From an uncultured Mycobacterium sp. (GTDB taxonomy: Bacteria > Actinomycetota > Actinomycetes > Mycobacteriales > Mycobacteriaceae): a stretch of 64,000 nt of DNA. Location: positions 37,498-101,497 of the forward strand of contig CAYURT010000004.1 of NCBI GenBank assembly GCA_964447215.1. Direction: 5' to 3'. Numbering within the stretch: position 1 is the first letter of the stretch; the number at the start of each line of letters is the position of its first letter. This document shows positions 19,431 through 38,289 of the stretch, in pieces. The notes beneath the pieces were generated by a model that did not search any database, was not told the DNA's origin, and saw only the letters and a program-made list of their open reading frames with translations. The translations under genes were made by a program, and so were the position numbers.

Positions 19431-19456
19431 AGACCCGATCGTCCCCCCGCCGGTTC

Positions 19457-20308
19457 TCAGCCGCGCCGCAGGACCAGCCCGGGGTCGAAGGTGGCCCGGG
19501 CCGCGACCGAGGCGGCGGCGGCCGAGACCACCAGCGCGGCGGCATCCTCGTAGCCCTTGGGGAACACGATCTCGGCGCTGTCGGGCCCGTCCCGGTGCGC
19601 CATCAGCCAGTCATAGAGCAGCCAGTCCAGCGCGCAGGCCACCGTCATCGGATCGGCGCCGGGAAGACGCGCCGCGGACACCACCGCGTGCAGGGCCTCA
19701 CGGTGCTCCTTGCGAGCCCCCTCCTTGTTCACCCCCGAACTGTCGAACATCATCATCGACAGGGTCAGCGGGAACCGTTGGCCCGCCTCGGTGCGCACCA
19801 CCCAACGGCCGCCCTTCCACGGCGCGTCCGGGTCGACCCGGTGGAACTCCCCGAAGCCCCCCACCACCCCGAGTTCGGGGTCGTCGAGTTCCCCGTCCAA
19901 GGGCGCCGGACCCAGCAGACCCAGCGGCTGGCGGGCCAGGATGGAGAACAGCGCGGCGGTTCCGACGATCTTGCCCGCGCGCAGGTCCGCGGCGGACCCG
20001 GTCTGTTCCAGCGCGGCAGCGTACTCGAAGCACAGCCGGTCCAGCGCCCGGTGCAACTCCAGCAGGTCGTCGCGTTCGGCTTCGCCGGAGGGGCCGCGTC
20101 CGCCGCCCAGGATCTCACCGAAGCGCCCCGCCGCGATGATCAGCGCGTCGTCGAGCGCCTCCAGGTGGGTGGCGATCAGGCGGTCGGCCTCGTCGTCGCC
20201 GACGACGAGCGCCTGCAGCGTGGTCGCCGCTCCCTCGGGGGTGACCCAGTAGAAGCCGATCTGCTCGTCGGTCTGCACGATCCGGGGCCTCACGGTTCCC
20301 TCTTCCAC
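19457..20308 (-). CDS. Hypothetical protein, last gene of the hydrogenase operon
   Basis: This 283-aa acidic ORF has coding-like composition but no motif I recognise. Two starts are possible: ATG 20308 (19-nt overlap with the NHL gene) or GTG 20293 (GTGA overlap with the NHL stop). Confidence 0.6.
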   Translation of the reverse strand: MEEGTVRPRIVQTDEQIGFYWVTPEGAATTLQALVVGDDEADRLIATHLEALDDALIIAAGRFGEILGGGRGPSGEAERDDLLELHRALDRLCFEYAAALEQTGSAADLRAGKIVGTAALFSILARQPLGLLGPAPLDGELDDPELGVVGGFGEFHRVDPDAPWKGGRWVVRTEAGQRFPLTLSMMMFDSSGVNKEGARKEHREALHAVVSAARLPGADPMTVACALDWLLYDWLMAHRDGPDSAEIVFPKGYEDAAALVVSAAAASVAARATFDPGLVLRRG

Positions 20309-21549
20309 AGCACCACCCGGTTGTTGCCGGAGTCCGCCACCGCCAGGGCGTCACCGCGCAGCGAGAGTCCGTAGGGCCAGCACAGCGTGTCGCGCTGGAC
20401 CGAGGTCCAGCGGTTCTCCCCGTTGGAGGCGAAATCGGGCTGCGCGAGTACACAGTCGGCACCCCGGAAGGGCGTGCCGCCATCGGACCAGTCGGCACCC
20501 CGGAAGGGCGTACCGCCATCGGCACAGTCGGCACCCCGGAAGGGCGTGCCGCCCGGCACGTCGTCCCACAGCAGGATCCGGTTGTTGGCGGTGTCGGCCA
20601 CAGCCAGGGTCTGGCCGTCCAGGCATACCGCGTAGGGGAACCGGAACCGGTCGTTGGTGTGCGGACCGTACGGCCACTCTTCGGCGCTGGTGAAATCCGG
20701 TTGACCGAGTACCACGTCGGCTGCCCGGTCACCGGCCGGGTGCGGCGACCAGCCCAGCACCCGGTGGTCCCCGGCGTCGGCGATGAGCAGCAGGTCGCCG
20801 TCGCCGGAGATGTCATGCGGCCAGCGGAAGCTGGCCGGGCCCGCTGGCCCGCCCCGGTTCTCGGCGTGAGATGCCGGATCCGGCTGGCCCAGCAGGATGT
20901 CGGCGGGCTGATCGGGTTCGGGGATGCCGCCGCGCCAGCCCAACACCCGGCGGTTTCCGGTGTCGGCGACCCAGAACACCGAACCGACGATCGCGATGCC
21001 GAAGGGCCAGTAGAGGCCGGTGGCCGAACAGGGGCCGCCACGGTTCGCCTCGACGCTGCCGGCATCGGGCTGTCCGATGACCAGATCGGGCGCCACGTCG
21101 CTGGTCCGCGGCACGCTGTCCCACACCAGGATCCGGTGATGCCAGGCGTCGGCGACGACCAGCCGGCCCTCGTGTACCAGCACCCCGGTGGGCAGGTGCA
21201 TCCCCCGCTCCGGGCCCCGGCCGCCGGCCGCCGGGCCCTCGGTGTGGCCGTCGGGTTGGCCCAGCACCACATCGGCGGGCTGCTCGTCGGAGTCGGGCAG
21301 GGTGTGCCAGATCAGCACCCGGTGGTTGCCGGAGTCGGCCACCACGAGCTGGTCCTCGCCGAGGAAAACCCCGCGCGGGGAGTACATCCACGCCATCGAC
21401 GGTGCGGCGGGCGGCAGTGCCAGGCCGCCGGGTGCGGGGGCGCCCAGCCAGGCCTGCGGTCGCCACCCACCGCTCAGGTCCACCTCCGGGGCGACGTCGG
21501 GCCGGGTGCCGACCCCGCTGATGTTGTGCCGAACCGTGTAGCGGCCCAC
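20290..21549 (-). CDS. Six-bladed NHL-repeat beta-propeller protein (hydrogenase-associated)
   Basis: There are six copies of the blade motif (VVADSGNHRVLIW, VVADAWHHRILVW, WVADTGNRRVLGW, LIADAGDHRVLGW, AVADTANNRILLW, AVADSGNNRVVLW). They are separated by AD-x-(V/L)LGQPD linkers. Confidence 0.8.
   Translation of the reverse strand: MGRYTVRHNISGVGTRPDVAPEVDLSGGWRPQAWLGAPAPGGLALPPAAPSMAWMYSPRGVFLGEDQLVVADSGNHRVLIWHTLPDSDEQPADVVLGQPDGHTEGPAAGGRGPERGMHLPTGVLVHEGRLVVADAWHHRILVWDSVPRTSDVAPDLVIGQPDAGSVEANRGGPCSATGLYWPFGIAIVGSVFWVADTGNRRVLGWRGGIPEPDQPADILLGQPDPASHAENRGGPAGPASFRWPHDISGDGDLLLIADAGDHRVLGWSPHPAGDRAADVVLGQPDFTSAEEWPYGPHTNDRFRFPYAVCLDGQTLAVADTANNRILLWDDVPGGTPFRGADCADGGTPFRGADWSDGGTPFRGADCVLAQPDFASNGENRWTSVQRDTLCWPYGLSLRGDALAVADSGNNRVVLWKREP
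20453..20553 (-). repeat. 36-bp in-frame tandem repeat (2.8 copies) inside the NHL gene
   Basis: The units at 20453-20488, 20489-20524 and 20525-~20553 (CAGTCGGCACCCCGGAAGGGCGTGCCGCCATCGGAC) differ at 1-3 positions. They encode GGTPFRGADCAD / GGTPFRGADWSD / GGTPFRGADC. Confidence 0.9.
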
Positions 21550-21561
21550 GACCGTCGCCGC

Positions 21562-22431
21562 CTATCCGACCCGCACCCAGACGGCGCCGTCATCGACGCG
21601 CAGCGGCAACTGCTCGAGTTGGGCTCCCGGCATGCTCAGGCACTCACCGGAGCTGGCGTCGAAACAGAAACCGTGCCATGGGCAGGTCAGCGTGCCGTTC
21701 GCGAGGTCCAGGACGCCGTCGTCCAAGGGCAGCGCCTCGTGCGCGCATTCGTTGCGGTAGGCCGACAGCCGCTGGCCCAGGTTGACGATCAGCACGTCGG
21801 CGCGCGCACCGGCGGTGGTGTTCAGCGACACCGGCGTCAGGTCGTCGACCTTGAGATCCGATGCCGGGCCGACCCTCGCCCAGCCTTCGGACTCCGGATC
21901 GCGGCCGATGCGCAGCGACTCGACCGGGATCAGCGTCGGGCTGGGCTCGTCGGCGAGCACCTCGACCGACGTGATCGACGGAACCCCCTGCACCAGAGCC
22001 TCTTCCACCAGGTTCCGCAGGGTCACCGAGGACATCGAGCAGCCGTTGCACGCGCCCTCCAATCGAACGAAGGCCGTGCCGTCGTCCACCCGGACCAGGG
22101 TGACGTCGCCGCCATGGCTGTGCAGCTGCGGCCGCACCGAGGCCAGCACCTGGTTGGCGTTGGTCACCGGGTCGGGCCGGACGATGCCGTGCAGCGAGAG
22201 CAGCAGGTGCACAACGGGGTCGTCGACGAGTTCGAAGAGCACCTCGCGGGCCGCTTCGTGCTCACGCATCCGCCGCACCATGGTCAGCAGCCCGGAGCGG
22301 TGCACCGCCTCGACCGCGTCCTGGAGTTCCTGCGCGACCGTGCGGGCCGGCTCGTCGAGTTCGGCGGCGGCGGCGACGGCCGCGTCGACCCGCTCGGCGA
22401 GTTCCTCGAACGTCGGTTCCGGATCACTCAT
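21562..22431 (-). CDS. hucE: NifU-like / Rieske [2Fe-2S] fusion protein (HucE-like putative hydrogenase electron-transfer protein)
   Basis: The ATG at 22431 overlaps the upstream stop (ATGA). It has a NifU C-terminal-type CxxC motif (EGACNGCSMSSVTL) and a Rieske pair (NECAHE ... CPWHGFCF). Length is 289 aa. Confidence 0.75.
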   Translation of the reverse strand: MSDPEPTFEELAERVDAAVAAAAELDEPARTVAQELQDAVEAVHRSGLLTMVRRMREHEAAREVLFELVDDPVVHLLLSLHGIVRPDPVTNANQVLASVRPQLHSHGGDVTLVRVDDGTAFVRLEGACNGCSMSSVTLRNLVEEALVQGVPSITSVEVLADEPSPTLIPVESLRIGRDPESEGWARVGPASDLKVDDLTPVSLNTTAGARADVLIVNLGQRLSAYRNECAHEALPLDDGVLDLANGTLTCPWHGFCFDASSGECLSMPGAQLEQLPLRVDDGAVWVRVG

Positions 22432-23681
22432 CCCGGCGTCTCCTCGGTGCGGGCCAGCGCCTGCTGCTTGGCGATCTCGTCGAGCACGCCACGCACGGTG
22501 CGCACCGAGTCGTGATCGCCGAGTTCCTCGAACAGGAACCGCGCGTCGTAGAGCTTGGCCTTGGCCTGCTCGAAGTCCCCCAGGTGGGCCAGCACATTGC
22601 CCTGGTTGGCCAGCACCCGGGCACGCCCCAGCGGGTCGCTGTCCCGGTCGCGGGCCGAGAGCACCCCCTCGTAGAGCTCTACGGCCTCGACGAGGTTGTC
22701 GAGCCGATGGTTCGACGGGGTGTACACCAGCGAGTTGGCCAGGTTCAACTGCACGCTGGCCCACTGCTCGGGGTAGTCCTCGCGGGTGTAGACCTTCAGC
22801 GCCGAGCGCAGCGACTGGGCGGCGACGCCCAGCCGGAGCTGATCGGAGGCCTCGGTCATCGGCATGGTCAGGTAGGCGGTGGCCAGGTTCGCGTGCGCGG
22901 ACGCCCACAGCAGCGGGGCCTCCTCCCGCAGCACCAGCTGAAGCGCGGAGTGGTAGTGCGGCACCGCGCGGGCCAGCAGGTCGGGGCGGTCCCCGGCCTG
23001 CTCGTGCAGGACACCGGCCAGGTTCAGGTGCAGTTCGGCCCGGGCCACCCGCAGGCCGTCGGCCCCGTCGAGCGCCCGCAGCGCCCGCTGGAACCGGTCG
23101 ACGGCCTCAGTGCCCCCGGCGATCGGCGCCGAGGCCCCCAGCAGCACCCCGCGCAGCGGGGCGGACACCGCGCCGGCCTGTTCGGCGGCCCGATCGAGGT
23201 GATCCAGCGCTGCGGCGGCATCACCCGCCGCGAGTGCGTGACCGGCCTGGGCCGAACCCGCCACGGCGGCCAGTTCGGCATCGGCGGCCTCGGCGTCCGG
23301 GGGGCTGTCGCAGCGGCCGAGCGCGAACAGCACGACGTCGACCATGATCGCGAATTCACCGAGCGCCGAACGCAGTTGGTCGGGGTCCTCGGAATCGGGA
23401 TCCATGACGAACCGGTTGTAGCGGGTGATCGGATCGTCTCCGGTCAGCTGGGCCAGCGCCCCGTCGCGATCACCGGCCAGTGCGAGTTCGTGGGACTTCA
23501 GTACCGCCGGCCACCGGGGCACCTGGCCGGCCAGCAGCGCCACGCGGGCCTCCTCGGTCTCCGGCGAGGCCGGGATCAGCAGGTAACCCAGCGGCAGCGG
23601 GAAGGCGCCGACCGGCTGCGGGCGAACGGCCAGGACGGCCGGATCGTCCAGGTCGGACACTCCGGTCTCGGATGCGGTCAC
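22428..23681 (-). CDS. TPR-like repeat protein (hydrogenase-associated, function unknown)
   Basis: An AAGGAG sequence lies 4 nt upstream of the GTG at 23681, and that GTG overlaps the upstream stop (GTGA). The C-terminal half has TPR-like helices (NLATAYLTM, LNLANSLVY, LANQGNVLAHLGDFEQAKAKLYDARFLFEELGD). Length is 417 aa. Confidence 0.7.
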   Translation of the reverse strand: MTASETGVSDLDDPAVLAVRPQPVGAFPLPLGYLLIPASPETEEARVALLAGQVPRWPAVLKSHELALAGDRDGALAQLTGDDPITRYNRFVMDPDSEDPDQLRSALGEFAIMVDVVLFALGRCDSPPDAEAADAELAAVAGSAQAGHALAAGDAAAALDHLDRAAEQAGAVSAPLRGVLLGASAPIAGGTEAVDRFQRALRALDGADGLRVARAELHLNLAGVLHEQAGDRPDLLARAVPHYHSALQLVLREEAPLLWASAHANLATAYLTMPMTEASDQLRLGVAAQSLRSALKVYTREDYPEQWASVQLNLANSLVYTPSNHRLDNLVEAVELYEGVLSARDRDSDPLGRARVLANQGNVLAHLGDFEQAKAKLYDARFLFEELGDHDSVRTVRGVLDEIAKQQALARTEETPG

Positions 23682-23938
23682 AGTGCTCCTTGTATCGGCC
23701 CGGCGATATCGCGCTCGGCGGCCCGCTTGATCAGATCGGCGGCCAGTTCCGCGCGCCTCTTGGTGGCGTGGGTGTGGATCCGCTTGCGGACCACCCCGTC
23801 GGCGAACACCACGATGATGTCCACCGCCCAGCGGCCACGCTCGGGGACCACCACGGTGGTCACGTCCAGCGCCTCCTGAGCCGAGCTGTCCGTGCGGACC
23901 TCGGTCTTGGGGCGCTGCGGATCGGACACGATGATCAC
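23678..23938 (-). CDS. Small hypothetical protein (86 aa) between the protease and TPR genes
   Basis: The GTG at 23938 overlaps the protease stop, and its own stop overlaps the TPR start (GTGA both times). The sequence is VIIVSDPQRPKTEVRTDSSAQEALDVTTVVVPERGRWAVDIIVVFADGVVRKRIHTHATKRRAELAADLIKRAAERDIAGPIQGAL. I recognise no motif. Confidence 0.5.
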   Translation of the reverse strand: MIIVSDPQRPKTEVRTDSSAQEALDVTTVVVPERGRWAVDIIVVFADGVVRKRIHTHATKRRAELAADLIKRAAERDIAGPIQGAL

Positions 23939-24771
23939 TCCCCCACCGGCCCGTGCACCCGGATCCGCAGCGCCTTGTCGCCGTCGTCCCAGCGGGCCTG
24001 CAGCACGCCGGCCGCGATGTCGTCGCCGAGCACTTCCCGCACCAGCACCGCCCGGTCCCCGGCCGGGTTGCGCTGTTTGAGCAACAGACCGCCGCTGCTG
24101 GGTCCACGCAGCGGGTAGAGCCACAGTTCGCCGTCGCGCAGCGCTGCCGCCACCGCGTCGGAGGGAAACCGGCTGGCGGCCAACTCGGCGGCGAGCCGAA
24201 GATAGCCGTCAGCGGTGAGTTCGACGGTGCTCTCGGCCTCGGCGGGCGGACGCAACGGAGCGAAGAAGTCGCGTTCGATGCGGGCGATCACCTGTTCCAT
24301 CGCCGCGGACACCGGCTCGGACAGCTCGGCGCCCAGTTCCACCCCGGCCGCCTCGATGAGGAACACGGTGATGTCGGTCGGGCAGGCCTCCCCGAGCGCC
24401 CAGCGGGCGAACGGGATGGCGTGGTCCCAGCGGAACGAATGGGTGTGCAGGCCCTGCAGCGGCGGCAGGTCGCTGAGTTCCTCCCCGGGAACCCGGTAGA
24501 CGGTGCCGGGTTCGGCGCCGGTGGCCGACGCATCGACGATCACCACCCGCCGCGCGCCGCGCATCTGGAAGGCGACGTCCATACCGGCGGTGCCGCCGTC
24601 GACCAGTCGGGCGCCGTCGGGAACGCCGCGGTCCCACAGGTGGCGAACCAGGACCGGTCCGACGCCGTCATCGCCGCGCAGCAGATTCCCGCAGCCCACC
24701 ACCAGCACGTCGTAGGGCGGCGGCTCGATGTCGACGGCCGCGTCGCTACCGGGAGTGGCCTCCCCGGTCAC
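23935..24771 (-). CDS. [NiFe]-hydrogenase maturation endopeptidase (HupD/HybD family) with an extra ~110-aa C-terminal domain
   Basis: The GTG at 24771 overlaps the large-subunit stop (GTGA). The protease core is VLVVGCGNLLRGDDGVGPVLV...VVIVDA...HTHSF. The C-terminal part (STVELTADGYLRLAAELA...RIRVHGPVGE) is unassigned. Length is 278 aa. Confidence 0.8.
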   Translation of the reverse strand: MTGEATPGSDAAVDIEPPPYDVLVVGCGNLLRGDDGVGPVLVRHLWDRGVPDGARLVDGGTAGMDVAFQMRGARRVVIVDASATGAEPGTVYRVPGEELSDLPPLQGLHTHSFRWDHAIPFARWALGEACPTDITVFLIEAAGVELGAELSEPVSAAMEQVIARIERDFFAPLRPPAEAESTVELTADGYLRLAAELAASRFPSDAVAAALRDGELWLYPLRGPSSGGLLLKQRNPAGDRAVLVREVLGDDIAAGVLQARWDDGDKALRIRVHGPVGE

Positions 24772-26375
24772 ACCATTCCGTTGACGACGAACTTCGAGAG
24801 CTCCTTGCCGGTCTTGCCGTCGTAGGCGTGCACGGTGCACACCAGGCAGGAGTCGAAGCTGCGGGCGACGTGTCCGAGCTCGACGGGGTCCTCCGGGTCG
24901 ACGATCGGCGCGCCGACGAACGCCCGCTCCATCGGCCCGAGCACCTCGTTGCCGTCCCGGGGGCCGATGTTCCACGCGGTCGGGGTGACCACCTGGTAGT
25001 TCTTGATCTTGCTGTTCTCGATCACGATCCAGTCGGCCAGCGAGCCGCGGGCGGCCTCGGTGGCCCCGAAGCCCTTGCCCTCGGCGTGCTCGGTGGGCTT
25101 GGTGTAGAAGCTCTCCTTCAGGTCGAGCTGGTCCAGCCAGGACTTGACCCACTTGTAGTACTTGGGCGCCTCGTGCATACGGCCCAGTTGCCGCACCATC
25201 ACGCTGGGCCCGATCTTGTTGTAGATGTCGAGGAAGAGCGGATCGTTGTCCTGGTGCGGACCGGCGTTGGGGCCGGCCGCGGCCATCCGGCGGGCCAGCG
25301 GCCCGGTCTCCAGCGGGATGGCGCCCAGGTCGCCCACCTCGTAGCGCGGCGACTTGGCCCAGCTGTACTTGCCCTGCTTCTTGGCGGCCTCCGGGTCCAG
25401 CGGGATGGTCTCGCCCTCGAACGGATGCAGCGGACGGCTGCCCTGATAGAAGGAGTGCGTGACGTCCTCGCGGACGTTGGCCTGATCGAAGTCGAACCAC
25501 TGGCCGTCGGTGAACACCCCGCCGCGCCCGATCAGCGCGGCGTTGCGACCCTCGATGGTGGGCCGCTGGTAGAGGTTGGGGTCGAAATAGGTGCCCATCG
25601 CCATGTAGTTGCCGACCCCGGCGCCGTACTTGTCCAAGCCGACGTCGAGGCAGTAGCGGATGAAGAAGCCGCAGTCGCTGTTGTACTGCGACTCGTTCTC
25701 GTCGACCCAGGCCAGCACATCCTCCCAGGTCTTGTTCTCCAGCCACCGGTCCACGCTGCAGCCCAGCCACTCGGCTTCCAGCCAGTTGTCCTTCCAGTGC
25801 TCCAGGATCGCGATCGAGCGAGTCACGTCGGACAGCGACGGGGCCCCCATCACGCCGCCGGGAACCATGAAGCTGGAGTGCGGCCACTGCCCGCCGAAGA
25901 TCGCGTAGACCTCGACGGGCTTGTTCGACATCGTCACCCCCTTCTGATACGCGGTGCCGACGTAAGGGGCGAAGCGGCGGACGGCCTCGTCGTACAGGGC
26001 CGACTTGGCATAGTTCTTGTTGGTCAGGTCGATGGCGAACAGCGCATAGAAGTAGCGCGGTATCGACTGCAGCGTCTCGCAGGCCTGCGCGATATTGCGC
26101 ACCAGGGTGGCGTTGGGCGGCATGTGGGTGCGCCAGGCGGTGTCCAGGGCGTAAGCCGACTTGTAGAGGTGGCTGCCGCCGCAGATCCCGCAGATGCGCG
26201 GACACACGATGAGCCCGGCCTGCGGGTCCTTGCCGCGAAGGATGATCTCGAAGCCGCGGAACATCGCGGCCTCGGTCCACGCCGAGGTGACCACCCCGTC
26301 GTCGATGGTCACCCGGACGTCGAGGTCACCCTCGACGCGACCGAGGGGGCTGACGTGAAGATCGAGTGCTGTCAT
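24768..26375 (-). CDS. hucL: [NiFe]-hydrogenase large subunit, group 2a-like (Huc-type)
   Basis: It has the N-terminal Ni-binding motif PRICGICGGSH, the C-terminal motif FDSCLVCTVH, and a 19-aa tail for proteolytic removal. An AAGGA Shine-Dalgarno-like sequence precedes the ATG. Length is 535 aa. Confidence 0.95.
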   Translation of the reverse strand: MTALDLHVSPLGRVEGDLDVRVTIDDGVVTSAWTEAAMFRGFEIILRGKDPQAGLIVCPRICGICGGSHLYKSAYALDTAWRTHMPPNATLVRNIAQACETLQSIPRYFYALFAIDLTNKNYAKSALYDEAVRRFAPYVGTAYQKGVTMSNKPVEVYAIFGGQWPHSSFMVPGGVMGAPSLSDVTRSIAILEHWKDNWLEAEWLGCSVDRWLENKTWEDVLAWVDENESQYNSDCGFFIRYCLDVGLDKYGAGVGNYMAMGTYFDPNLYQRPTIEGRNAALIGRGGVFTDGQWFDFDQANVREDVTHSFYQGSRPLHPFEGETIPLDPEAAKKQGKYSWAKSPRYEVGDLGAIPLETGPLARRMAAAGPNAGPHQDNDPLFLDIYNKIGPSVMVRQLGRMHEAPKYYKWVKSWLDQLDLKESFYTKPTEHAEGKGFGATEAARGSLADWIVIENSKIKNYQVVTPTAWNIGPRDGNEVLGPMERAFVGAPIVDPEDPVELGHVARSFDSCLVCTVHAYDGKTGKELSKFVVNGMV

Positions 26376-26423
26376 GGAAGTCCTTAGGGGTCGGTCGGTG
26401 GGCGGGGGCGGCTGGGGTTCGAC

Positions 26424-27395
26424 TCAGACGACGAACATGTCCTCTTTGGACCACTTCGGCGCGGCCAGTCGGGCGGCGGCGGCGTGGGCCATGTAGGAGA
26501 GCTTCTTGGTCCCGGTCGGCACCTCCTCGGGGATCACCCCGGCCACCTTCTGGGTCTTGAACAGCGTGCCGGGAGCCAGGTCGAAGTGCGGGAACTCCGG
26601 TTCGGTGCAGCCGTAGCAGGGCTGGCCGGCTCGGGTCTTGGAGGACTGGCGGTTCCACAGGATCCGGTTGCACGGCGAGTGGGTCATCGGGCCGCGGCAG
26701 CCGAACTCGTAGAACAGGCATCCGGTGCGGGTGCCCTCACCGAAGGACATGGTGGACTGCTTGTATTCGAAGAACTGCACGCGCGTGCAGCCGGTCTGGG
26801 TGAACGTCTTGAAGAAGGTCTCCGGGCGCTGCAACTCGTCCAGCGCGATGTCCCCGGCCCGGCCGCTGGCCAGCGCGACGATGATCTGGGTGATCCAGTC
26901 CGGGTGGGCCGGACAACCGGGGATGTTGATCACCGGCAACCCCATCTTGGACTTGAAGTTCGGGCCCAGGAAGCCGCCCTTGTTGCGCTTGTGGAACTGC
27001 AGGCCGGTCGAGCCCGACGGGTTGGGCTCCATCGCCGGGATGCCGCCCCAGCAGGCGCAGTCCCCGATCGCCACGACGATCTGGGCCTGGGCCGCCAGCT
27101 CGGTGACCCAGTCCTTCATCGGCCGGTCGGCGAACATGTCCATCCGGCCCGAGCCGTTCGGGGCCTGGATGATGCTGCCCTCGAACACGAACACGTCCAG
27201 CGGCCGCTCGCCCTTGGCGCAGTCCCAGAACAGCTTCTGGGCGTTGTTGCCCAGCTCCAGCCCCAGCGACGGATGCCAGATCACGTCGAGGCCGAAGTCG
27301 ACGATCAGGTCGACGACATTGGGTTCCTCGGCGTTCAGGAACGACATGGTGTTGCCGCTGCACGCCCCTCCCTGCAGCCATAGAACAGATGCCAT
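26424..27395 (-). CDS. hucS: [NiFe]-hydrogenase small subunit without a Tat signal peptide, group 2a-like
   Basis: The ATG at 27395 is preceded by GAGAGGAG 7 nt upstream. The N-terminus MASVLWLQGGACSGNTMSFLNAEEP resembles cyanobacterial-type HupS. There is no RRxF twin-arginine leader. Cys motifs GDCACWGG and GCPAHPDW are present. Confidence 0.9.
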   Translation of the reverse strand: MASVLWLQGGACSGNTMSFLNAEEPNVVDLIVDFGLDVIWHPSLGLELGNNAQKLFWDCAKGERPLDVFVFEGSIIQAPNGSGRMDMFADRPMKDWVTELAAQAQIVVAIGDCACWGGIPAMEPNPSGSTGLQFHKRNKGGFLGPNFKSKMGLPVINIPGCPAHPDWITQIIVALASGRAGDIALDELQRPETFFKTFTQTGCTRVQFFEYKQSTMSFGEGTRTGCLFYEFGCRGPMTHSPCNRILWNRQSSKTRAGQPCYGCTEPEFPHFDLAPGTLFKTQKVAGVIPEEVPTGTKKLSYMAHAAAARLAAPKWSKEDMFVV

Positions 27396-27708
27396 GCGCA
27401 GACTCCTCTCGGAAGGGTTCAGCCGAAGATCCGAAGACCCCGGCACCGGCGCGAGCGCCGCAGTGGGGGTAGTTCGACACTAACCCCACGGCGTCGATAC
27501 CGGAACCGGAAAACACCCTCTATTTCTGACTTCTGGCCCGACGATCACCGCGCCGCGGCCGCGGGCTCCTACCCCGGGTCCCACCCGTGCGGGGGATTGT
27601 CTTCCCCGGGAGCCACCGCCACTATTGACGGGCGCTCGGGGCGGACGCGGGAGACGTTCCGGACCCCGGCGCGGATGAACGCGGATCTTGCGGAGAGGGG
27701 TCGCCACC

Positions 27709-28779
27709 ATGCTGACCAACCACACCACGCTGGTGCGGTTCCTGATCGAGGAACGCGCCCGCCACCCCGAGGCCAGCGGCGACCTCAACGCGCTGATCCT
27801 CGACGTCGCGCTGGCCTGCAAGGCGATCTCCAACCGGGTGGCCCAGGGTGAGCTGGGCGGGGTGCTCGGCGCCGCCGACGCGGTCAACGTCCAGGGCGAG
27901 ACCCAGCAGAAGCTCGACGTGCTGGCCAACGAGTACTTCCTGCACGCCTGCGAGTGGGGCGGGCAGACCGCGGGCATGGTCTCGGAGGAACTCGAGGAGC
28001 ACTACCGCCTGCCGTCCCGGTACGCCCGGGGCAAATACCTGCTGAGCTTCGACCCGCTCGACGGGTCGTCCAACATCGACGTCAACGTCTCGGTCGGCAG
28101 CATTTTCTCGATCCTGCGCGCACCCAACCCCGGCGAGGACGCCGCGCCCGAGGATTTCCTTCAGCCGGGCACCGAGCAGGTGTGCGCGGGTTACGCCATC
28201 TACGGCCCGTCGACGATGCTGGTGCTGACCGTGGGGACCGGGGTGCACGCGTTCACCCTGGACCCGGGGCTGGGCGAGTTCTTCCTGAGCCGGGAGTCGA
28301 TCACCATCCCGACCCATGCCACGGAGTTCGCGATCAACACCTCCAACCGCAGGTTCTGGGAGCCCGCCGTCCAGCGCTACATCGACGAGTGCATGGCCGG
28401 CCAGAGCGGGCCCCGCGGCAAGGACTTCAACATGCGCTGGGTGGCCTCGCTGGTCGCCGAGACCCACCGCATCCTCGGCCGCGGCGGGGTGTTCCTTTAT
28501 CCGCGTGACTCCAAGGACCCCAGCAAGGCCGGACGGCTGCGCCTGCTCTACGAGGCCAACCCGATCGCCTTCATCATCGAGCAGGCCGGCGGACTGGCCA
28601 GCACCGGCCGCCGCCGCCTGCTGGAGGTGGAGCCGACCGAGATCCACCAGCGGGTCCCGTTCATCTTCGGGGCGGCCGACGAGGTCCGCCGCGTCGAGCA
28701 CTACCACAGCGAGAGCAACGACAACCCGAACACCTCTCCGCTCTATGGCACCCGCGGCCTGTTCCGCAGCACCACCTGA
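27709..28779 (+). CDS. fbp: Class I fructose-1,6-bisphosphatase (CbbF-type; possibly FBPase/SBPase)
   Basis: The ATG at 27709 has a GGAGAGGGG Shine-Dalgarno-like sequence upstream. The class I signature LLSFDPLDGSSNIDVNVSVGSIFSI is present. Length is 356 aa. Confidence 0.9.
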   Translation: MLTNHTTLVRFLIEERARHPEASGDLNALILDVALACKAISNRVAQGELGGVLGAADAVNVQGETQQKLDVLANEYFLHACEWGGQTAGMVSEELEEHYRLPSRYARGKYLLSFDPLDGSSNIDVNVSVGSIFSILRAPNPGEDAAPEDFLQPGTEQVCAGYAIYGPSTMLVLTVGTGVHAFTLDPGLGEFFLSRESITIPTHATEFAINTSNRRFWEPAVQRYIDECMAGQSGPRGKDFNMRWVASLVAETHRILGRGGVFLYPRDSKDPSKAGRLRLLYEANPIAFIIEQAGGLASTGRRRLLEVEPTEIHQRVPFIFGAADEVRRVEHYHSESNDNPNTSPLYGTRGLFRSTT

Positions 28780-28838
28780 GAACGGTTCGCACCCGCCAAC
28801 GGTCCGGCCAGGAAGCCTCAGCCCAGAAAGGTCCCGTC

Positions 28839-29717
28839 ATGTCCCGACTGCACCCGATCATCTCGGTCACCGGATCCTCAGGAGCCGGCACCACCTCGGT
28901 CATGAAGACCTTCGACCACATCTTCCGGCGCGAGGACGTCAACGTCGCCTATATCGAAGGCGACAGCATGCACCGCTACGACCGTGCCGAGATGAAGGTC
29001 AAGATCGCCGAGGCCCATGCCAACGGCAACCACAACTTCAGCCACTTCGGCCCGGAGTCCAACCTGTTCGCCGAGTTGGAGGACCTCTTCCGCACCTACG
29101 GCGAGACCGGGACCGGCAAGGTGCGCAAGTACCTGCACGACGACAAGGAAGCCGAACCCTACGGCCAGGCGCCGGGAACGTTCACGCCGTGGGAGAGCCT
29201 GCCGGACAACACCGACATACTGTTCTATGAGGGCCTGCACGGCGCGGTGGTCACCGGCGACGTCGACATCGCCCGCCATGCCGACCTCAAGATCGGCGTG
29301 GTCCCGGTGATCAACCTGGAGTGGATTCAGAAGCTGCACCGCGACAAGGTGTCCCGCGGCTACACCTCCGAGGCGGTCACCGACACCATCCTGCGCCGGA
29401 TGCCCGACTATGTGAACTTCATCTGCTCCCAGTTCACCTACACCGACGTCAACTTCCAGCGGGTGCCGATGGTCGACACCTCGAATCCGTTCATCGCCCG
29501 GTCGATCCCGACCGCCGACGAGTCGATGGTGATCATCCGGTTCCGCGATCCGCACGGCATCGACTTCCCCTATCTGCTGTCGATGCTGCACGACTCGTTC
29601 ATGTCCCGGGCCAACACCATCGTGTGCCCCGGCGGGAAGATGGAACTGGCCATGCAGCTCATCTTCACCCCGATGGTGATGCGCCTGATCGAACGCCGGA
29701 GGGCGGCGATGCCCTGA
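28839..29717 (+). CDS. cbbP: Phosphoribulokinase (bacterial class I, CbbP-type)
   Basis: It has an N-terminal P-loop (HPIISVTGSSGAGTTSV) plus the typical bacterial PRK patterns FRREDVNVAYIEGDSMHRYDRAEM and PVINLEWIQKLHRDK. Confidence 0.9.
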   Translation: MSRLHPIISVTGSSGAGTTSVMKTFDHIFRREDVNVAYIEGDSMHRYDRAEMKVKIAEAHANGNHNFSHFGPESNLFAELEDLFRTYGETGTGKVRKYLHDDKEAEPYGQAPGTFTPWESLPDNTDILFYEGLHGAVVTGDVDIARHADLKIGVVPVINLEWIQKLHRDKVSRGYTSEAVTDTILRRMPDYVNFICSQFTYTDVNFQRVPMVDTSNPFIARSIPTADESMVIIRFRDPHGIDFPYLLSMLHDSFMSRANTIVCPGGKMELAMQLIFTPMVMRLIERRRAAMP

Positions 29718-29760
29718 GGCCCCGCCGGGGTGAACTGACCGGGTCTCAGGACGCGGCGAC

Positions 29761-30666
29761 TCAGGATGCGGCTCTGCGCAGCGGGCCGATCGTGCGCCAG
29801 CCCAGATCCCGGTGCGCGACCAGATGCTTGACCAGAAGTTCGGTGGAACTGGTCGGCGCGGACTGGCTGACCAGGTGCCAGGGGCGGTTCAGCGGTGTGC
29901 CGGGCACCGCCAGTTCGACCAGCGTCCCGCTGTCGAGCTGGGTCCGCACCGCCTGCCGGGACACCAGGGTCACCCCCAGGCCCGCCACCGCCGCCGCGAC
30001 CACCGCCCCGTGCGACCCCAGCACCAGCAACGAGGGACTGACGTCGAGTTCGTCGAGGAGCGCCGAGAGCGCGGACCGGGTTCCCGAACCCGGCTCGCGC
30101 AGCAACCACGTCGTGCCCGCCGGTGTGAAGTCCGCGGCCACCGCCGGCGCGCCGACGACGATCAGGGTGTTGGGGCTGACAGCCCGAACCCGGGCTTTGC
30201 GCCGCAGGTTCTCCGGCGGCCGCCCGGCCACCACGAGGTCGACCTCGTGGCGAGCCAGCATCGGCCACACGTCGTTACGCGAGGCCACCTCCAGGTTCAG
30301 GACGACCGAGGGATAGCGTTCGCGGAACGAGGCCAGCGCGGCCGGGATCAGCAGTTCCCCCGCCGAGGTGACCGCCGCCAGCCGCACCGAGCCGTTCTCC
30401 GGGTCCGCCTCGCCGCGCGCAGCCAGGATCGCCTCATCATGCAAACCCAGGATGCGCCGGGCGTACTCGACATAACGCTCCCCGGCCGGGGTCAGTTTGA
30501 CCCCGCGACCGTGCCGGTCGACCAGGGCGATCCCGATCTCGTCGGACAGCGCGCGGACCGCCGAGGAGATCGAGGACTCGGTCACCACCAGCCGCTCCGC
30601 GGCGCCCCGCACCGAACCGGTCTCGGCCAGTTCAACCAGGGCGCGGAGCCTGGCCTTAGTTGTCAT
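29761..30666 (-). CDS. LysR-family transcriptional regulator (CbbR-like by context)
   Basis: It has an N-terminal HTH (LRALVELAETGSVRGAAERLVVTESSISSAVRALSDEIGIALVDR) and a LysR substrate-binding domain. It is divergent from the aldolase gene and convergent with cbbP. Confidence 0.8.
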   Translation of the reverse strand: MTTKARLRALVELAETGSVRGAAERLVVTESSISSAVRALSDEIGIALVDRHGRGVKLTPAGERYVEYARRILGLHDEAILAARGEADPENGSVRLAAVTSAGELLIPAALASFRERYPSVVLNLEVASRNDVWPMLARHEVDLVVAGRPPENLRRKARVRAVSPNTLIVVGAPAVAADFTPAGTTWLLREPGSGTRSALSALLDELDVSPSLLVLGSHGAVVAAAVAGLGVTLVSRQAVRTQLDSGTLVELAVPGTPLNRPWHLVSQSAPTSSTELLVKHLVAHRDLGWRTIGPLRRAAS

Positions 30667-30698
30667 CAGTGGTCATCGGTCGCCCGCCATGACCACTG
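30667..30698. promoter_or_regulatory. Perfect 10-bp inverted repeat (CAGTGGTCAT-N12-ATGACCACTG) abutting the LysR start codon. Candidate operator or 5'-UTR hairpin.
   Basis: The repeat was read directly from the sequence. It lies in the 190-bp divergent LysR/aldolase intergenic region, which also contains an unusually AT-rich patch (ATTGTCCAATATTTTCG, ~30731-30747). Confidence 0.4.
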
Positions 30699-30856
30699 AG
30701 GGTGCCTGACGACACTGAACTTGTCTACGGATTGTCCAATATTTTCGCTGAACCGATCACCTAACTGTTGCCCTCCCCCGCAACATCCACCCAAAGGGTG
30801 ATTTCCCCGGTCGCGGCACGTCCTATCGTTTCGCAATTCGACGTGAGGAGCACCGC

Positions 30857-31849
30857 ATGAACTGCAGGCAGATCGCCGCCGAGATGACCGCCTTCGGCAA
30901 GGGCGTCCTGGCCGCCGACGAGAGCATCGCCACGATGTCCTCGCGGCTGGAGAAGGCGGGCGTCACCCCCAGCGAGCAGAGCCGCCGGGACTACCGCGAA
31001 CTGCTGTCCTCGACTCCGGACCTCTCCGACGGGGTGTCGGGGATCATCTTCTGCGACGAGACCCTGAAGCAGACCTTCGCCGACGGCACCCCGTTCCCGC
31101 AGGCGGTCCGCGCCCGCGGGATCCTGCCCGGCATCAAGGTGGACACCGGCGCCAAACCCTGTCCGGGGCTGCCCGGCGAGACCATCACCGAGGGCCTCGA
31201 CGGGCTGGCCGGACGGCTGGCGACCTACGCCGAGATGGGGGCGGCCTTCGCCAAGTGGCGGGCGGTCTACACCATCACCGACAGCACCCCCAGCCGCGGC
31301 TCGATCGTCAGCAACGCCAATGCCCTGGCCCGCTACGCGGCCGCCTGCCAGGAGGCCGGGTTGGTCCCGATCGTCGAGCCGGAGGTTCTGATGGCCGGCG
31401 GCCACGGCATCGACACGTGCGCGGCGGTCACCACCGCGGTGCACGAGGCGGTCCGCGAACACCTGGCGCTGCTCAACGTCGACCTGGCCGGGATCGTGCT
31501 CAAGCCCAACATGATCACCGAGGGCGAGGACGCGGCCTCGGCTTCCCCGGAGGAGGTGGCGGCGGCGACCGTCGAGGTGCTGCGCGCCTGGCCCGACGAT
31601 CTGGCCGGGGTGGCGTTCCTGTCCGGGGGCCAGCCGCCGGAGCGGGCCACGGCCAACCTGGCCGCCATGCAGTCCCACCCGACACCGTGGCCGCTGACCT
31701 TCTCCTTCGGCCGCGCGCTGGTCTCCCCCGCGCTGGCGGCCTGGCACGGCGAGAAGGCCAACTGGACCGCCGGGCAGAGCGCCCTGGCCGAGCACGTCAA
31801 CGCCAACGCTGCGGCGGTCCGGCTGCGCGGCGAGCTTCAGTCCGCCTGA
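30857..31849 (+). CDS. Class I (Schiff-base) fructose-bisphosphate aldolase
   Basis: It has GKGVLAADESIATMSSRLE, ILPGIKVDTG, and the Schiff-base lysine context IVLKPNMI. A GAGGAG Shine-Dalgarno-like sequence precedes the ATG. Length is 330 aa. Confidence 0.85.
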   Translation: MNCRQIAAEMTAFGKGVLAADESIATMSSRLEKAGVTPSEQSRRDYRELLSSTPDLSDGVSGIIFCDETLKQTFADGTPFPQAVRARGILPGIKVDTGAKPCPGLPGETITEGLDGLAGRLATYAEMGAAFAKWRAVYTITDSTPSRGSIVSNANALARYAAACQEAGLVPIVEPEVLMAGGHGIDTCAAVTTAVHEAVREHLALLNVDLAGIVLKPNMITEGEDAASASPEEVAAATVEVLRAWPDDLAGVAFLSGGQPPERATANLAAMQSHPTPWPLTFSFGRALVSPALAAWHGEKANWTAGQSALAEHVNANAAAVRLRGELQSA

Positions 31850-33084
31850 GGCTCGCCCGCCTCCAGCGGGATGGTCACCGTCACCCCGGTGCCCGCCCCG
31901 GGTTGGGAGCGCACCTCGAGCCGTCCGCCGACCAGTTCGGCGCGCTCGGCCATCGACAGCATGCCGAAGCCGCCGGACACCGCCGCGCGCTGAGTGCCGG
32001 GGACCCTGTCGTCGGCAGGGTCGAAGCCGACCCCGTCGTCGGTGACCTCCAGCCGGGCCACCCCGTCCTCGACGGTGAACCGCACCGACGCACGCAGGGC
32101 ACGGGAGTGCTTGACGACGTTCTGCAGGCCCTCCTGGGCGATGCGATAAAGAGCGACCTCGATGTGTTCGGGCAGCCGCATCTCGGCCAGTTCGAGCCCG
32201 AGGTCGACCTCGGTGACGGATGCGGCCAGGCTGGCCAGTCCGCCGGCCAGGCCCAGGTCGTCGAGCACCGGCGGGCGCAGGCCACCGATCGCCGAGCGGG
32301 CCTCGGCAAGGGTGAGATCGACGAGGTCACGGGCCTTCTCCAGCTGCTCGACGGCGTCGGCGCACTGCTGGCGATCCACGGCGCGGGCCGCCGCGTCGAG
32401 CCGGTAGGTGAGGCTGACCAGCCGCTGGGAGATGCCGTCGTGGATATCGGCCGCCAGCCTGCGGCGCTCGCTTTCCTGGGCGGCGATCACCTGCTCGGCG
32501 AAGTCCTCGTGGGCCCGCTCGCGGGCGCTGAGCTGACGGTGCAGCCGTGCCTGGTGCAGGGCCCCGGCGATCAGCCGACCGATCACCAGCAGCAGCTGGA
32601 TGTCGCGGGCGGTGAAGTCCCGCCGGGTGATGGTGTGCACGTTGAGAACCCCGACCAGCCCGCCCGGCTCGGTCTCCATCGGCACCGAGGCCATCGAGGT
32701 GAAGTCCGACCCCCGCAACGACTCGATCGGCAGGTAGCGGGGGTCGTCCTCCTTGCCGGTCACGATGACCACCGGCTCGCGGTGGGCGGCAACCCAGCCC
32801 GAGACCCCCGCGCCCAGTGGTATCCGGATCCGACCGACCTGCTCGTCGAACGGCGGGGTCGCCCCGGCCAGGGTCAGAGACCGGTCGGTGTCGTCGAGGA
32901 CGTGGACGAAACACACGTCCGACGCGGTGGCGCCGGTGATCAGCTGGGCGACCGCGGCCGCCATCGGTTCCACCCCGGGTCCGCTGGAGGTGGCGGCGAT
33001 GATGTCCAGCAGCAGGGTCACCTCTCGGTCGGCGTCGACCAGACCGTGAACATCCTGGGCACCCAGGCGGCTGGCCGGACTCAC
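31837..33084 (-). CDS. Soluble GAF-domain sensor histidine kinase (HisKA_3 / NarL-partner type)
   Basis: No transmembrane segment is visible. It has a GAF-like N-domain, the H-box ERRRLAADIHDGISQRL, and HATPase motifs (GLQNVVKHS, DDGVGF, GFGMLSMAERAELVGG). Its 3' end overlaps the aldolase 3' end by 13 nt. Confidence 0.85.
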   Translation of the reverse strand: MSPASRLGAQDVHGLVDADREVTLLLDIIAATSSGPGVEPMAAAVAQLITGATASDVCFVHVLDDTDRSLTLAGATPPFDEQVGRIRIPLGAGVSGWVAAHREPVVIVTGKEDDPRYLPIESLRGSDFTSMASVPMETEPGGLVGVLNVHTITRRDFTARDIQLLLVIGRLIAGALHQARLHRQLSARERAHEDFAEQVIAAQESERRRLAADIHDGISQRLVSLTYRLDAAARAVDRQQCADAVEQLEKARDLVDLTLAEARSAIGGLRPPVLDDLGLAGGLASLAASVTEVDLGLELAEMRLPEHIEVALYRIAQEGLQNVVKHSRALRASVRFTVEDGVARLEVTDDGVGFDPADDRVPGTQRAAVSGGFGMLSMAERAELVGGRLEVRSQPGAGTGVTVTIPLEAGEPQAD

Positions 33085-33752
33085 TGGAAGATCCCCTCCC
33101 GCAAGGCCGTCGCCACGGCGCCGGTACGGTCGCCCACCCCGAGCTTTCGGTAGATCGAGCGCAGGTGGCTCTTGACGGTCTCCTCGCCGATGATCAGCTT
33201 GGTGGCCACCCCGCGGTTGGACAGCCCGGCGACCACCAGTGAGAGGATTTCGCTCTCCCGCTGGGTCAGCCCCTGACGGGCGCCGGGCCAGAATTCGTCA
33301 CGCTGCATCCGCGCGGCGGTGTCCACCGCACGGGCGGCCAGTCCGGGGTCGATCGCCATCTCACCGTTGTGCACCAGCTCCAACTGGCGGACCAGTTCGT
33401 CGCTGCCGATCCCCTTGAGCAGATAGCCCGAGGCGCCCACCCGCAACGCCTGGAAAAGGTACTGCTCGTCGTCGTAGACCGACAGCAGGATGACCTTGCG
33501 CTCGGGGTCGCGCTCCCGGACCGCGCGGCACAGATCCAGGCCGCTGGACCCCTGCATCCGGATGTCGCTGAGCACGATGTCGGGGGCGAGGCCGGCGATG
33601 ACGTCGAGGGCTTCGTCCACACCGAGTGCCTCACCGACCACCGTGACCCTGGCGGCGAACGGCGAGAGCATGGCCTTGAGACCTTCGATCACCATCTGGT
33701 GATCGTCGACGATCACCACGCGGAGCGGTCCCCCGCCGGCTGGCCCGGTCAT
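33081..33752 (-). CDS. NarL/LuxR-family response regulator
   Basis: It has a receiver domain (RVVIVDDHQMV...IVLSDIRMQGSSGLD) and a LuxR HTH (LTQRESEILSLVVAGLSNRGVATKLIIGEETVKSHLRSIYRKLGV). Its stop overlaps the kinase start (GTGA). Confidence 0.9.
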   Translation of the reverse strand: MTGPAGGGPLRVVIVDDHQMVIEGLKAMLSPFAARVTVVGEALGVDEALDVIAGLAPDIVLSDIRMQGSSGLDLCRAVRERDPERKVILLSVYDDEQYLFQALRVGASGYLLKGIGSDELVRQLELVHNGEMAIDPGLAARAVDTAARMQRDEFWPGARQGLTQRESEILSLVVAGLSNRGVATKLIIGEETVKSHLRSIYRKLGVGDRTGAVATALREGIFQ

Positions 33753-33829
33753 GGGCTAACGATAGGTCACCGCCAATCGCCGAGCACCGATCCGGCATCG
33801 ACATATCCTGTCCGGCGGAGGTGTCCGAG

Positions 33830-34570
33830 ATGGATCGAACCGGTGGTCTGGCGGCCGTCATCTTCGACGTGGACGGCACCCTGGCCGACACCGAACGGGA
33901 CGGCCACCGGCCGGCCTTCAACGCCGCCTTCACGTCCCACGGCGTGGATGTGCAGTGGAATCCCGAGCATTACGGCCGGCTGCTGAGCATCACCGGCGGT
34001 GACCGCAGGATCGCCGCGGACCTGCGCGAGCGCGGGTTCGGCGACCGGACCGAGACCCTGGCCGCCGACATCCACAAGACCAAGACCGGGTTGTTCCGCG
34101 AGGCGATCCTCAACGGTGAGATCTCCCCGCGGCCGGGATTGCCGGACCTCGTCGTCGACCTGCGCCGGGCCGGCATCCGGATCGCCGTCGCGACCACCGG
34201 CCGTCGGGCCTGGGTGGAGCCGCTGGTGCGCCACCTGCTCGGTGACGGCGTGGTCGAGGTGATGGTCACCGGCGACGACGTCGCCAACCTCAAACCCGAT
34301 CCCGAGGCCTACCGCAGAGCGCTGGACCTGCTCGGCGTCGCACCGGAACAGGCTCTGGCGGTTGAGGATTCGGCCAACGGACTGCAGGCCGCCAATGGCG
34401 CGGGGCTGGCCACGGTGGTGGTGACCAACGACTACACCCATGACCAGGACTTCACCGGTGCCGCCGCGGTGTTCGACCGCTACGACGGACCCGAGCCGCT
34501 GGACGCCGAGCGCTGCCGGCAGATTCACCACCGGTTCTGGTCCGGCCGCACGCAGCCAAGACGGGGCTAA
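33830..34570 (+). CDS. cbbY: HAD-superfamily phosphatase, CbbY-like
   Basis: [26 protein letters not shown]...[12 protein letters not shown] closely follows the CbbY N-terminal pattern as I remember it. I preferred ATG 33830 because of the GGAGG spacing; the ORF track gives GTG 33821. Its 3' end overlaps the gatB 3' end by 4 nt. Confidence 0.75.
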
Positions 34571-37624: not shown

Positions 37625-37629
37625 GAGGG

Positions 37630-38289
37630 TCAGATCCGGCCGGCGACGAACGCGGCGGCGTCCTGGGAGTAGGGCGGGAACTCGTAACCGTTGTGCGCGG
37701 CGCGGTCCCGGCCGCCCGGGTAGCAGATGGGGTCGCCGGGGCTGCACAGGTCGATCGCCTGCCCGGCGAACAGCCCGGTGGTCGACAGCGGGGTGCCGAA
37801 CCGGTTGGCCGGGTTGCCGAACACCGCCACCGCGGCGATCTGATCGGCCGCCTCCGGCGGCATCGGCGGCGCCGAACCGAGGTTGCCGACCAGGTTGCCC
37901 AGCGGCGGCACCCCGGCCAGCATCGAGATCACCGCCGCCCCCTGGGAGAACCCGCCGAGCACGAACCTGGTGGCCGGGCAGGCCACCGCCGCCCGGGACA
38001 GGTGGTTCTCGATGTCGGAGGCCCCGCTGGAGGTGGCCAGGAAGTTGACGCTGGCCGGGTAGTTCACCCCGTAGACGGCCAGGCTGCGCCCGCCCAGCAT
38101 GGGTGCCAGATTGTCGGCCAGCGCCTGGCCCACCCGCCCCAGGCCGGGGGGCTCACCGGTACCCCGGGCGAAGAGCAGTTCGACGTCCGGACAGTCGTCG
38201 GCGGCGGCCGCGGGCGCGGGGCCGGCCAGCACGGCCAGCGCGCTGACGGCGGCCGCCCCGAGTGCGGCCAGCCGCCGGTGCTCAGCCAA
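37630..38289 (-). CDS. Secreted cutinase-family serine esterase
   Basis: It has a signal-like N-terminus ([24 protein letters not shown]), [17 protein letters not shown], and the GFSQGA nucleophile elbow. I chose TTG 38289 as the start; it overlaps the pfkA stop and is uncertain. Confidence 0.7.

Follow-up and report, generated by a model that had tools for sequence, protein, structure and literature searches.

Oxidation of H2 coupled to the CO2-fixing enzyme RuBisCO is thought to help actinobacteria of soils and extreme environments to grow and persist. Hydrogenase and Calvin-cycle genes share one accessory element in Cupriavidus necator H16, whose megaplasmid pHG1, a proteobacterial plasmid and not an actinobacterial chromosome, carries membrane-bound, soluble, and regulatory hydrogenases and a complete cbb operon with cbbLS. 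In actinobacteria, form IE RuBisCO has been tied to hydrogen oxidation, and hydrogen-dependent autotrophy has been recorded in Mycolicibacterium (PMC12999727). Here we describe a 64-kb stretch of DNA from an uncultured Mycobacterium sp. (assembly GCA_964447215.1, contig CAYURT010000004.1; hereafter “the window”), in which 15 genes at 19431-34570, bounded by an lppZ-like gene and gatB, join a huc [NiFe]-hydrogenase operon to genes of the Calvin cycle. We conclude that this block is a cut-down, rearranged, and long-resident variant of an island known from other mycobacteria, not a newly inserted self-sufficient module, and that its main oddity is the missing RuBisCO. The explanation we consider probable is a composite, lineage-specific hydrogen-oxidation/Calvin-cycle island in a variable lppZ-gatB slot, with RuBisCO and the hyp genes outside the window.

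Two mycobacterial islands provide the comparison. M. cosmeticum (locus L098) has, contiguously, a class I fructose-bisphosphate aldolase (FBA), cbbL-cbbS, NicO, prk-fbp, hypBA, AraC, hucM, and huc-hyp genes. The mobilizable 437-kb plasmid of M. intracellulare subsp. chimaera AH16, from sputum (NZ_CP012886.2), carries a full island (L195, 328000-372000) of fba, cbbLSX, hyp, huc, hucM, AraC, hypAB, pgk-gap, a second class I fba, fbp-prk, and a complete second nuo operon. Like these islands, which occupy different genomic sites, our block clusters huc with class I FBA, class I fructose-1,6-bisphosphatase (FBPase), and phosphoribulokinase (PRK), and contains the same 273-aa protein; unlike them, it has no RuBisCO, hucM, AraC, or hypABCDEF. 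CbbX, gap-pgk, and the nuo operon are found in the plasmid island alone of the two, and the NicO nickel transporter in M. cosmeticum. Window proteins are ~62-88% identical to their counterparts in the two islands, and PRK is 72% identical to that of C. necator. Because the same families stand beside RuBisCO and huc in M. cosmeticum, on the M. chimaera plasmid, and in the gatB slot of a sister lineage (L191), the tie between Huc and Calvin-cycle genes proposed in a preliminary description of this DNA holds.

A more compact cassette, an fba fragment divergent from cbbL-cbbS-cbbX-lysR-fbp-prk, recurs in metagenomes beside integrases, transposases, and toxin-antitoxin genes. Against this actinobacterial form I (IE-type) cassette (L179-L188, L196-L205), the window's fbp is 75%, prk 78%, lysR 74%, and fba (over the fragment) 77% identical, and both keep a fba-proximal TCACC-N5-GGTGG motif; the window is without cbbL, cbbS, and cbbX, has fbp-prk inverted relative to lysR, and adds cbbY and a two-component system. 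By gene order, the block looks like the canonical cassette with fba divergent from lysR, minus cbbLSX and with fbp-prk inverted to face hucS. At the left edge of the cassette in L197 (1872-2477) and L202 (102-707), a truncated class I aldolase open reading frame (ORF) also matches a phage-integrase domain, which suggests that these cassette boundaries lie at a recombination site.

A hucM-less hydrogenase operon and its Calvin-cycle neighbors

The eight minus-strand genes at 19457-27395 form one huc operon, with hucS first and the 273-aa gene last. Over residues 1-515, HucL scored 1075 bits to the large subunit of M. smegmatis Huc (7UUS/7UTD), against at most 207 bits for all other hydrogenases, identifying a group 2a enzyme; its translation has intact nickel-iron ligand motifs, RICGICGGSH and DSCLVCTVH, and beyond them a C-terminal tail. 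HucS, whose N-terminus is MASVLWLQGGACSGN, has no twin-arginine motif and no Tat signal, and is 88% identical to HucS of the M. cosmeticum and M. chimaera clusters, both of which have hucM. The accessory set of protease, small ORF, TPR, NifU-Rieske, and NHL genes is that of the same two clusters: the NifU-Rieske protein is 63-67% identical to its counterparts there, the 83-aa ORF is 72-73% identical to the matching small ORFs, the NHL-repeat protein is conserved in both, and the TPR gene keeps its position in all huc clusters examined.

HucL and HucS are thus close homologs of M. smegmatis Huc (7UTD/7UUS; Grinter et al., 2023, PMC10017518), from which the window differs in lacking AraC, hypABCDEF, and, upstream of hucS, the gene for the stalk subunit, hucM (MSMEG_2261-type); here hucS instead faces fbp-prk across 313 bp. 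The gene annotated PF07849 upstream of hucS in M. cosmeticum is HucM (120 bits to 7UUS chain Q); tblastn with this HucM as query, and with AraC, found no match in the 64-kb window. We rejected an ORF at 27480-27977 (minus strand) as a gene or hucM candidate, since it has no third-position GC (GC3) periodicity, overlaps fbp, and shows no HucM similarity. hucM is also absent at L094-96, L189, and L191, and present in L011, L097, L098, and L195; hucM and AraC usually precede hucS, and both are missing from the operons of the clade described below except L011. The hucM-less operons are nonetheless under purifying selection, with ratios of nonsynonymous to synonymous divergence (dN/dS) of 0.08-0.16 for hucS and hucL. 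In M. smegmatis, deletion of hucM leaves Huc active, with loss of the large oligomer (PMC10017518); Huc without HucM can therefore still work, and its coupling to menaquinone would differ.

Three of the accessory proteins have features of their own. The NHL gene holds a 36-nt tandem repeat at 20453-20560, encoding the 12-aa unit GGTPFRGADCAD, in three copies in the window and in L001, L005, and L006, two in L003, and one in L004; copy number thus differs between populations of the same species. PDB matches of the maturation endopeptidase to HybD/HycI span residues 22-166 only, and its C-terminal extension of ~100 aa is conserved across mycobacterial huc clusters. The 273-aa protein has no Pfam, NCBIfam, or PDB sequence match, and its AlphaFold2 model, which is helical (pLDDT 66), has no Foldseek match at E <= 0.001. 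Homologs at 81-91% identity are widespread among mycobacteria, with a 67% homolog beside hypD and cbbX in the M. chimaera plasmid island, and the gene has a dN/dS of 0.16-0.23.

The Calvin-cycle genes resemble those found next to RuBisCO elsewhere. The window fbp is 75-79% identical to fbp of the cbb cassettes L179 and L098, PRK is 78-81% identical to the RuBisCO-adjacent PRK of the same two loci, and the class I FBA is 72% identical to that of M. cosmeticum, which is transcribed divergently from cbbL. PRK homologs at 80-85% identity are widespread in mycobacteria, including M. gadium, M. cosmeticum, M. moriokaense, and M. gordonae, all positive for the Calvin-Benson-Bassham cycle in PMC12999727. 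The phosphatase previously described as CbbY-like scored 176 bits (1e-50) to the Rhodobacter sphaeroides CbbY 4UAR and 144 to Arabidopsis thaliana 4UAV, with the next HAD protein at 66 bits, and we assign it on this similarity as a true CbbY. The LysR protein shares 74% identity with the LysR found within actinobacterial cbbL-cbbS-cbbX-lysR-fbp-prk cassettes. Among NCBIfam families it matches CbbR best, but its 152 bits fall short of the cut-off of 450 of that Rhodobacter-type model; it is predicted to be a regulator of the CbbR type.

The remaining regulators are a kinase with a single GAF domain, which in L191 lies directly upstream of cbbL, and a generic NarL/DevR-family response regulator (PDB matches VraR, NarL, and DevR at 103-111 bits). 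An identity of the kinase with DosS or DosT was rejected: no DosS/DosT chain was among the PDB matches at E <= 1e-5, the best of which were DesK, VraS, and unrelated GAF domains.

Both divergent intergenic regions contain conserved, operator-like motifs. The hucS/fbp region, which stands where hucM and AraC would be, has a CCCACCC-N4-CGGGGGAT motif at ~27580-27602 that is conserved in the window, L189, and L191. The lysR/fba region can be aligned with its fba-cbbL counterparts in L098, L179, and L183, and contains TCACCCTTTGGGTGG (TCACC-N5-GGTGG) at 30787-30801; this motif is present 4 times in the window, where 0.34 would be expected, and once in most of the fba-cbbL or fba-lysR regions examined, including L098, L179, L180, L183, L189, and L190. 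We considered it as a mark of the cbbL promoter and rejected this, because it is missing where fba is missing and so tracks fba, not cbbL.

Gene content and history of the lppZ-gatB slot

We scanned loci centered on gatB, with one genome per species, and searched the resulting loci, at least 80, with all window proteins. Among the matches listed, lppZ lies 0-1.7 kb from the gatB 3' end in 18 of 22 informative Mycobacteriaceae loci, with ilvB, cfp6, and doxX beyond; three of the other four hold other cargo, and one a huc variant. lppZ and gatB are also close in Nocardia, Rhodococcus, Gordonia, Dietzia, Tsukamurella, and Pseudonocardiaceae. These near-empty slots bear out the proposal that the block is accessory, and the loci searched do not have the same genes there in most mycobacteria. 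The slots of Mycobacterium sp. WMMD1722 (L019) and Mycolicibacterium sp. S2-37 (L022) hold ~10 kb of genes for acyl-CoA metabolism (L022 has a truncated lppZ at its far end), and that of Mycobacterium sp. Bu41 (L032) holds ~10 kb with hypF, hypC, and hypD; from this assorted large cargo, the slot is conserved yet has gained genes repeatedly.

Four other configurations of huc at gatB place the window in a nested series. In the first (L094-96, metagenome-assembled genomes of Mycolicibacterium sp.), gatB is followed by 245 bp, the eight huc genes, an alpha/beta hydrolase, and lppZ. In the second (L011), gatB is followed by a HAD gene, a NarL-type regulator, a GAF kinase, and an AraC gene divergent from hucM-hucS-hucL. 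The third (L191/L192) has huc and fbp-prk, then on the opposite strand lysR-cbbX-cbbS-cbbL-GAF kinase-NarL-type regulator, then gatB, so that RuBisCO sits inside the block at the gatB slot. The fourth (L189, GCA_029977845.1) has the window's gene set with a transketolase ahead of cbbY. The window shares with L191/L192 the site, a hucM-less huc operon, divergent fbp-prk, convergent lysR, and a GAF kinase and NarL regulator next to gatB; L191 has cbbL-cbbS-cbbX between kinase and lysR and no fba or cbbY, whereas the window has fba in that position and cbbY at gatB.

In a neighbor-joining tree of gatB, the window, L191, L096, L189, and L011 group together in one clade, separate from the remaining Mycobacteriaceae in the sample. 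All five lineages carry huc at gatB, each with different cargo, and synonymous divergence between lineages is alike for the two genes (dS 0.49-0.57 for hucL and 0.47-0.57 for gatB). Composition gives no signal of recent transfer: block and flanks are alike in GC3 (0.88-0.96 and 0.88-0.94) and codon usage (codon-fraction correlation r = 0.996). The shared dS and the matching codon usage support a long residence at this site. Nor is the block the single 15-gene insertion first described; it is a composite of a clade-wide huc core and hucS-gatB cargo that changes by lineage.

We suggest that the hucM-less huc operon entered beside gatB once, in the ancestor of a small, mostly uncultured Mycobacteriaceae clade, and has been inherited vertically since. 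The hucS-gatB segment would have been remodeled later, with the window keeping the non-RuBisCO part of the cassette (cbbR, fbp, prk, fba, and cbbY) and the GAF-kinase/NarL pair. One ancestor, with fba divergent from cbbLSX-lysR, could have given rise to the L191/L192, L189, and window arrangements, which would then reflect loss of fba in L191/L192 and of cbbLSX in L189 and the window.

The missing RuBisCO and rival explanations

The genes that remain show no sign of disuse. Against L189, whose block is also without cbbLSX, prk has a dN/dS of 0.15, fbp of 0.13, fba of 0.17, lysR/cbbR of 0.11, and cbbY of 0.21, compared with 0.13 for gatB and 0.15 for hucL and hucS (dS ~0.4-1.0); by these ratios the five genes are under purifying selection comparable to that on gatB, and appear to be in use. 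The reverse situation occurs in another mycobacterial lineage, where prk and fbp, behind an intact cbbL-cbbS-cbbX-lysR, survive only as fragments (L193, 9467-9763; L194, 4110-5227), a decay of the genes for ribulose-1,5-bisphosphate regeneration. No RuBisCO-independent role is established, to our knowledge, for PRK or CbbY. Given the selection on prk and cbbY, we infer that RuBisCO is encoded elsewhere in the genome; the hyp genes, which Huc requires, are expected elsewhere in the genome on the same grounds, huc being under purifying selection. Separation of prk from RuBisCO is normal in the family, since M. gadium (L091), M. gordonae (L092), and M. fortuitum (L093) have fbp-prk beside nuoN with no RuBisCO within 10 kb. 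Also near these fbp-prk pairs are rpe, HAD, FGGY kinase, or gap-pgk genes; together with the plasmid nuo operon, the nuoN neighbors suggest a dedicated complex I tied to Calvin-cycle genes in mycobacteria.

The block was first proposed to be a module for H2-driven CO2 fixation. Its link of Huc to Calvin-cycle genes is real, as shown above, but without cbbLSX, hucM, and hyp the block alone cannot drive CO2 fixation with H2. In the composite-island explanation that we favor, Huc would oxidize H2 and pass electrons to the respiratory chain, while PRK, FBPase/sedoheptulose-1,7-bisphosphatase, and aldolase would regenerate ribulose-1,5-bisphosphate and CbbY would clear the RuBisCO inhibitor xylulose-1,5-bisphosphate. 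The CbbR-type LysR and the GAF-kinase/NarL pair may stand in for the usual AraC regulator, acting at the two divergent regions to co-regulate H2 oxidation with ribulose-1,5-bisphosphate regeneration and CbbY repair. CO2 fixation would rely on a RuBisCO, and Huc maturation on hyp genes, that both lie outside the window.

Several points weigh against this explanation. As noted at the outset for RuBisCO and hyp, the whole 64 kb gave no tblastn match to cbbL, cbbS, cbbX, hypA, hypB, or hypF, nor to NicO. A metagenome scan with M. cosmeticum RbcL found, among the 80 loci listed, none from samples holding this organism, and three RbcL candidates picked by source pattern (P0223, P0232, P0352) were all from other samples. 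The clade comes from a neighbor-joining tree of a single gene, with no support values, and descent has not been purely vertical: in fbp, prk, and the two-component genes the window is nearer to L189 (88%, 90%, and 86% identity) than to L191 (72%, 85%, and 77-81%), whereas its gatB, hucS, and hucL are slightly closer to L191, which points to exchange between lineages. Co-regulation, finally, is read from gene arrangement and conserved motifs only.

The same facts could describe a relic or repurposed module, with RuBisCO deleted from the block and absent genome-wide, FBPase and aldolase serving gluconeogenesis or the pentose-phosphate pathway in H2-supported mixotrophy, and PRK and CbbY either RuBisCO-independent or on the way out. 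This is possible, and we consider it unlikely. The window indeed has no cbbL, cbbS, or cbbX, where L191 has all three beside cbbR in the position of the window's fba; the fba-lysR region aligns with fba-cbbL regions, as a clean deletion of cbbLSX would leave it; and no co-occurring RuBisCO was found among the matches listed. These scans covered only the matches listed, however, and so are weak negative evidence, while prk (dN/dS 0.15) and cbbY (0.21), for which we know of no RuBisCO-free role, have remained constrained over a dS of ~0.4-0.7 since the split from a sister with the same arrangement; where the pathway does seem broken, in L193/L194, only fragments of prk and fbp remain.

A single recent horizontal acquisition, with all 15 genes arriving as one island from, for instance, a megaplasmid like that of M. 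chimaera, is in our view improbable. A mobilizable mycobacterial plasmid does have huc, hyp, cbbLSX, fbp, prk, and fba within ~30 kb, most relatives are without the block, and cbb cassettes elsewhere keep company with integrases, transposases, and toxin-antitoxin genes. The plasmid proteins, however, are only 67-88% identical to those of the window, sister lineages have huc alone or beside different cargo in this very slot, the divergence of huc keeps pace with that of gatB, and codon usage and GC3 are those of the flanks. The boundaries also lack the marks of a mobile element, as had been remarked before: Pfam and NCBIfam scans found no integrase or transposase domain among the 15 genes, no tRNA is near the block (the nearest are at 5985-6183), and repeat searches at the block ends returned nothing beyond the repeats of the NHL gene itself and GC-rich pairs of low identity that are put down to chance.

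More speculative, and quite unlikely in our judgment, is a clade without any RuBisCO, in which a divergent promoter common to both sides connects a hucM-less Huc with PRK, FBPase, aldolase, CbbR, and CbbY; ribulose-1,5-bisphosphate would then be made and used in a RuBisCO-independent, hydrogen-linked pathway, or the stalkless Huc would pass electrons to a partner other than membrane menaquinone. That the block is core, with the same genes between lppZ and gatB in most mycobacteria, has as its sole support an identical block in many metagenome contigs of the same species, and is refuted by the slot counts given above.

Layout of the locus and its wider meaning

At ~70% G+C, the window yields raw ORF lists full of spurious frames. 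We therefore called genes by GC3 periodicity and cross-checked them against Pfam, NCBIfam, and independent gene calls on metagenome contigs with an identical locus; all agree on the 15-gene content and coordinates already described (Table 1). The convergent overlaps of fba with the kinase gene (31837-31849) and of cbbY with gatB (34567-34570) are likewise real.

Table 1. Features of the 19431-34570 block and its bordering genes (window coordinates).
Feature	Coordinates	Strand	Evidence
lppZ-like lipoprotein, GSDH fold, left flank	18339-19430	+	Pfam GSDH; 73-78% identity to gatB-adjacent lppZ homologs of other Mycobacteriaceae
Conserved 273-aa hypothetical, last gene of huc operon	19457-20278	-	
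NHL-repeat protein, Huc accessory	20290-21549	-	Pfam NHL
NifU-Rieske iron-sulfur protein, HucE-like	21562-22431	-	Pfam NifU + Rieske
TPR protein, 417 aa, Huc accessory	22428-23681	-	Pfam TPR_12, weak
Small 83-aa ORF, huc operon	23678-23929	-	Called in metagenome contigs
Hydrogenase maturation endopeptidase, 278 aa	23935-24771	-	NCBIfam TIGR00072, 139.6 bits vs cut-off 47
hucL, group 2a [NiFe]-hydrogenase large subunit	24768-26375	-	1075 bits to 7UUS/7UTD
hucS, small subunit	26424-27395	-	Pfam Oxidored_q6 + NiFe_hyd_SSU_C
Divergent hucS/fbp intergenic region, 313 bp	27396-27708	.	
Class I FBPase (cbbF-type fbp)	27709-28779	+	NCBIfam NF006779, 512 bits vs cut-off 349
Phosphoribulokinase (cbbP, prk)	28839-29717	+	NCBIfam NF011997, 506 bits vs cut-off 362
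LysR-family regulator, predicted CbbR type	29761-30666	-	
Divergent lysR/fba intergenic region	30667-30856	.	
Class I aldolase (fba, cbbA-like)	30857-31849	+	NCBIfam NF033379, 452 bits vs cut-off 250
Cytoplasmic GAF-HisKA_3-HATPase sensor kinase	31837-33084	-	Pfam
NarL/LuxR-type response regulator	33081-33719	-	Pfam Response_reg + GerE
Predicted CbbY, HAD phosphatase, xylulose-1,5-bisphosphate phosphatase family	33830-34570	+	
gatB, right flank	34567-36081	-	Pfam GatB_N + GatB_Yqey; 83-89% identity to Mycobacteriaceae gatB

Both flanks follow the M. tuberculosis gene order, as the preliminary description had recognized, with MutT1, leuC, tRNA-Gln/Glu, gltX, leuB, serA, ilvC, ilvN, ilvB, a cfp6-like gene, DoxX, and lppZ on the left, and gatB, pfkA, gatA, gatC, ligA, mnmA, iscS, etfAB, and Rv3031/3032-like genes on the right. 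A major facilitator superfamily (MFS) metabolite/H+ symporter and a cutinase separate gatB from pfkA in the window (36269-38289). The two genes are adjacent in M. tuberculosis and L191, and relatives carry one, both, or neither of symporter and cutinase; the gatB-pfkA interval is thus variable too, like the neighboring lppZ-gatB slot.

The locus bears on both the workings and the evolution of mycobacterial hydrogen oxidation. The direct regulators of huc in M. smegmatis are still to be found (PMC13098282), and the CbbR-type LysR and the GAF kinase with its NarL-type regulator are candidates offered here. Natural hucM-less huc operons under purifying selection could test the need for the HucM stalk in vivo. 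Together with its four sister configurations at one site of a mycobacterial core region that is conserved in other respects, the window presents a rare stepwise series in which such a capacity has been assembled, rewired, and partly dismantled.

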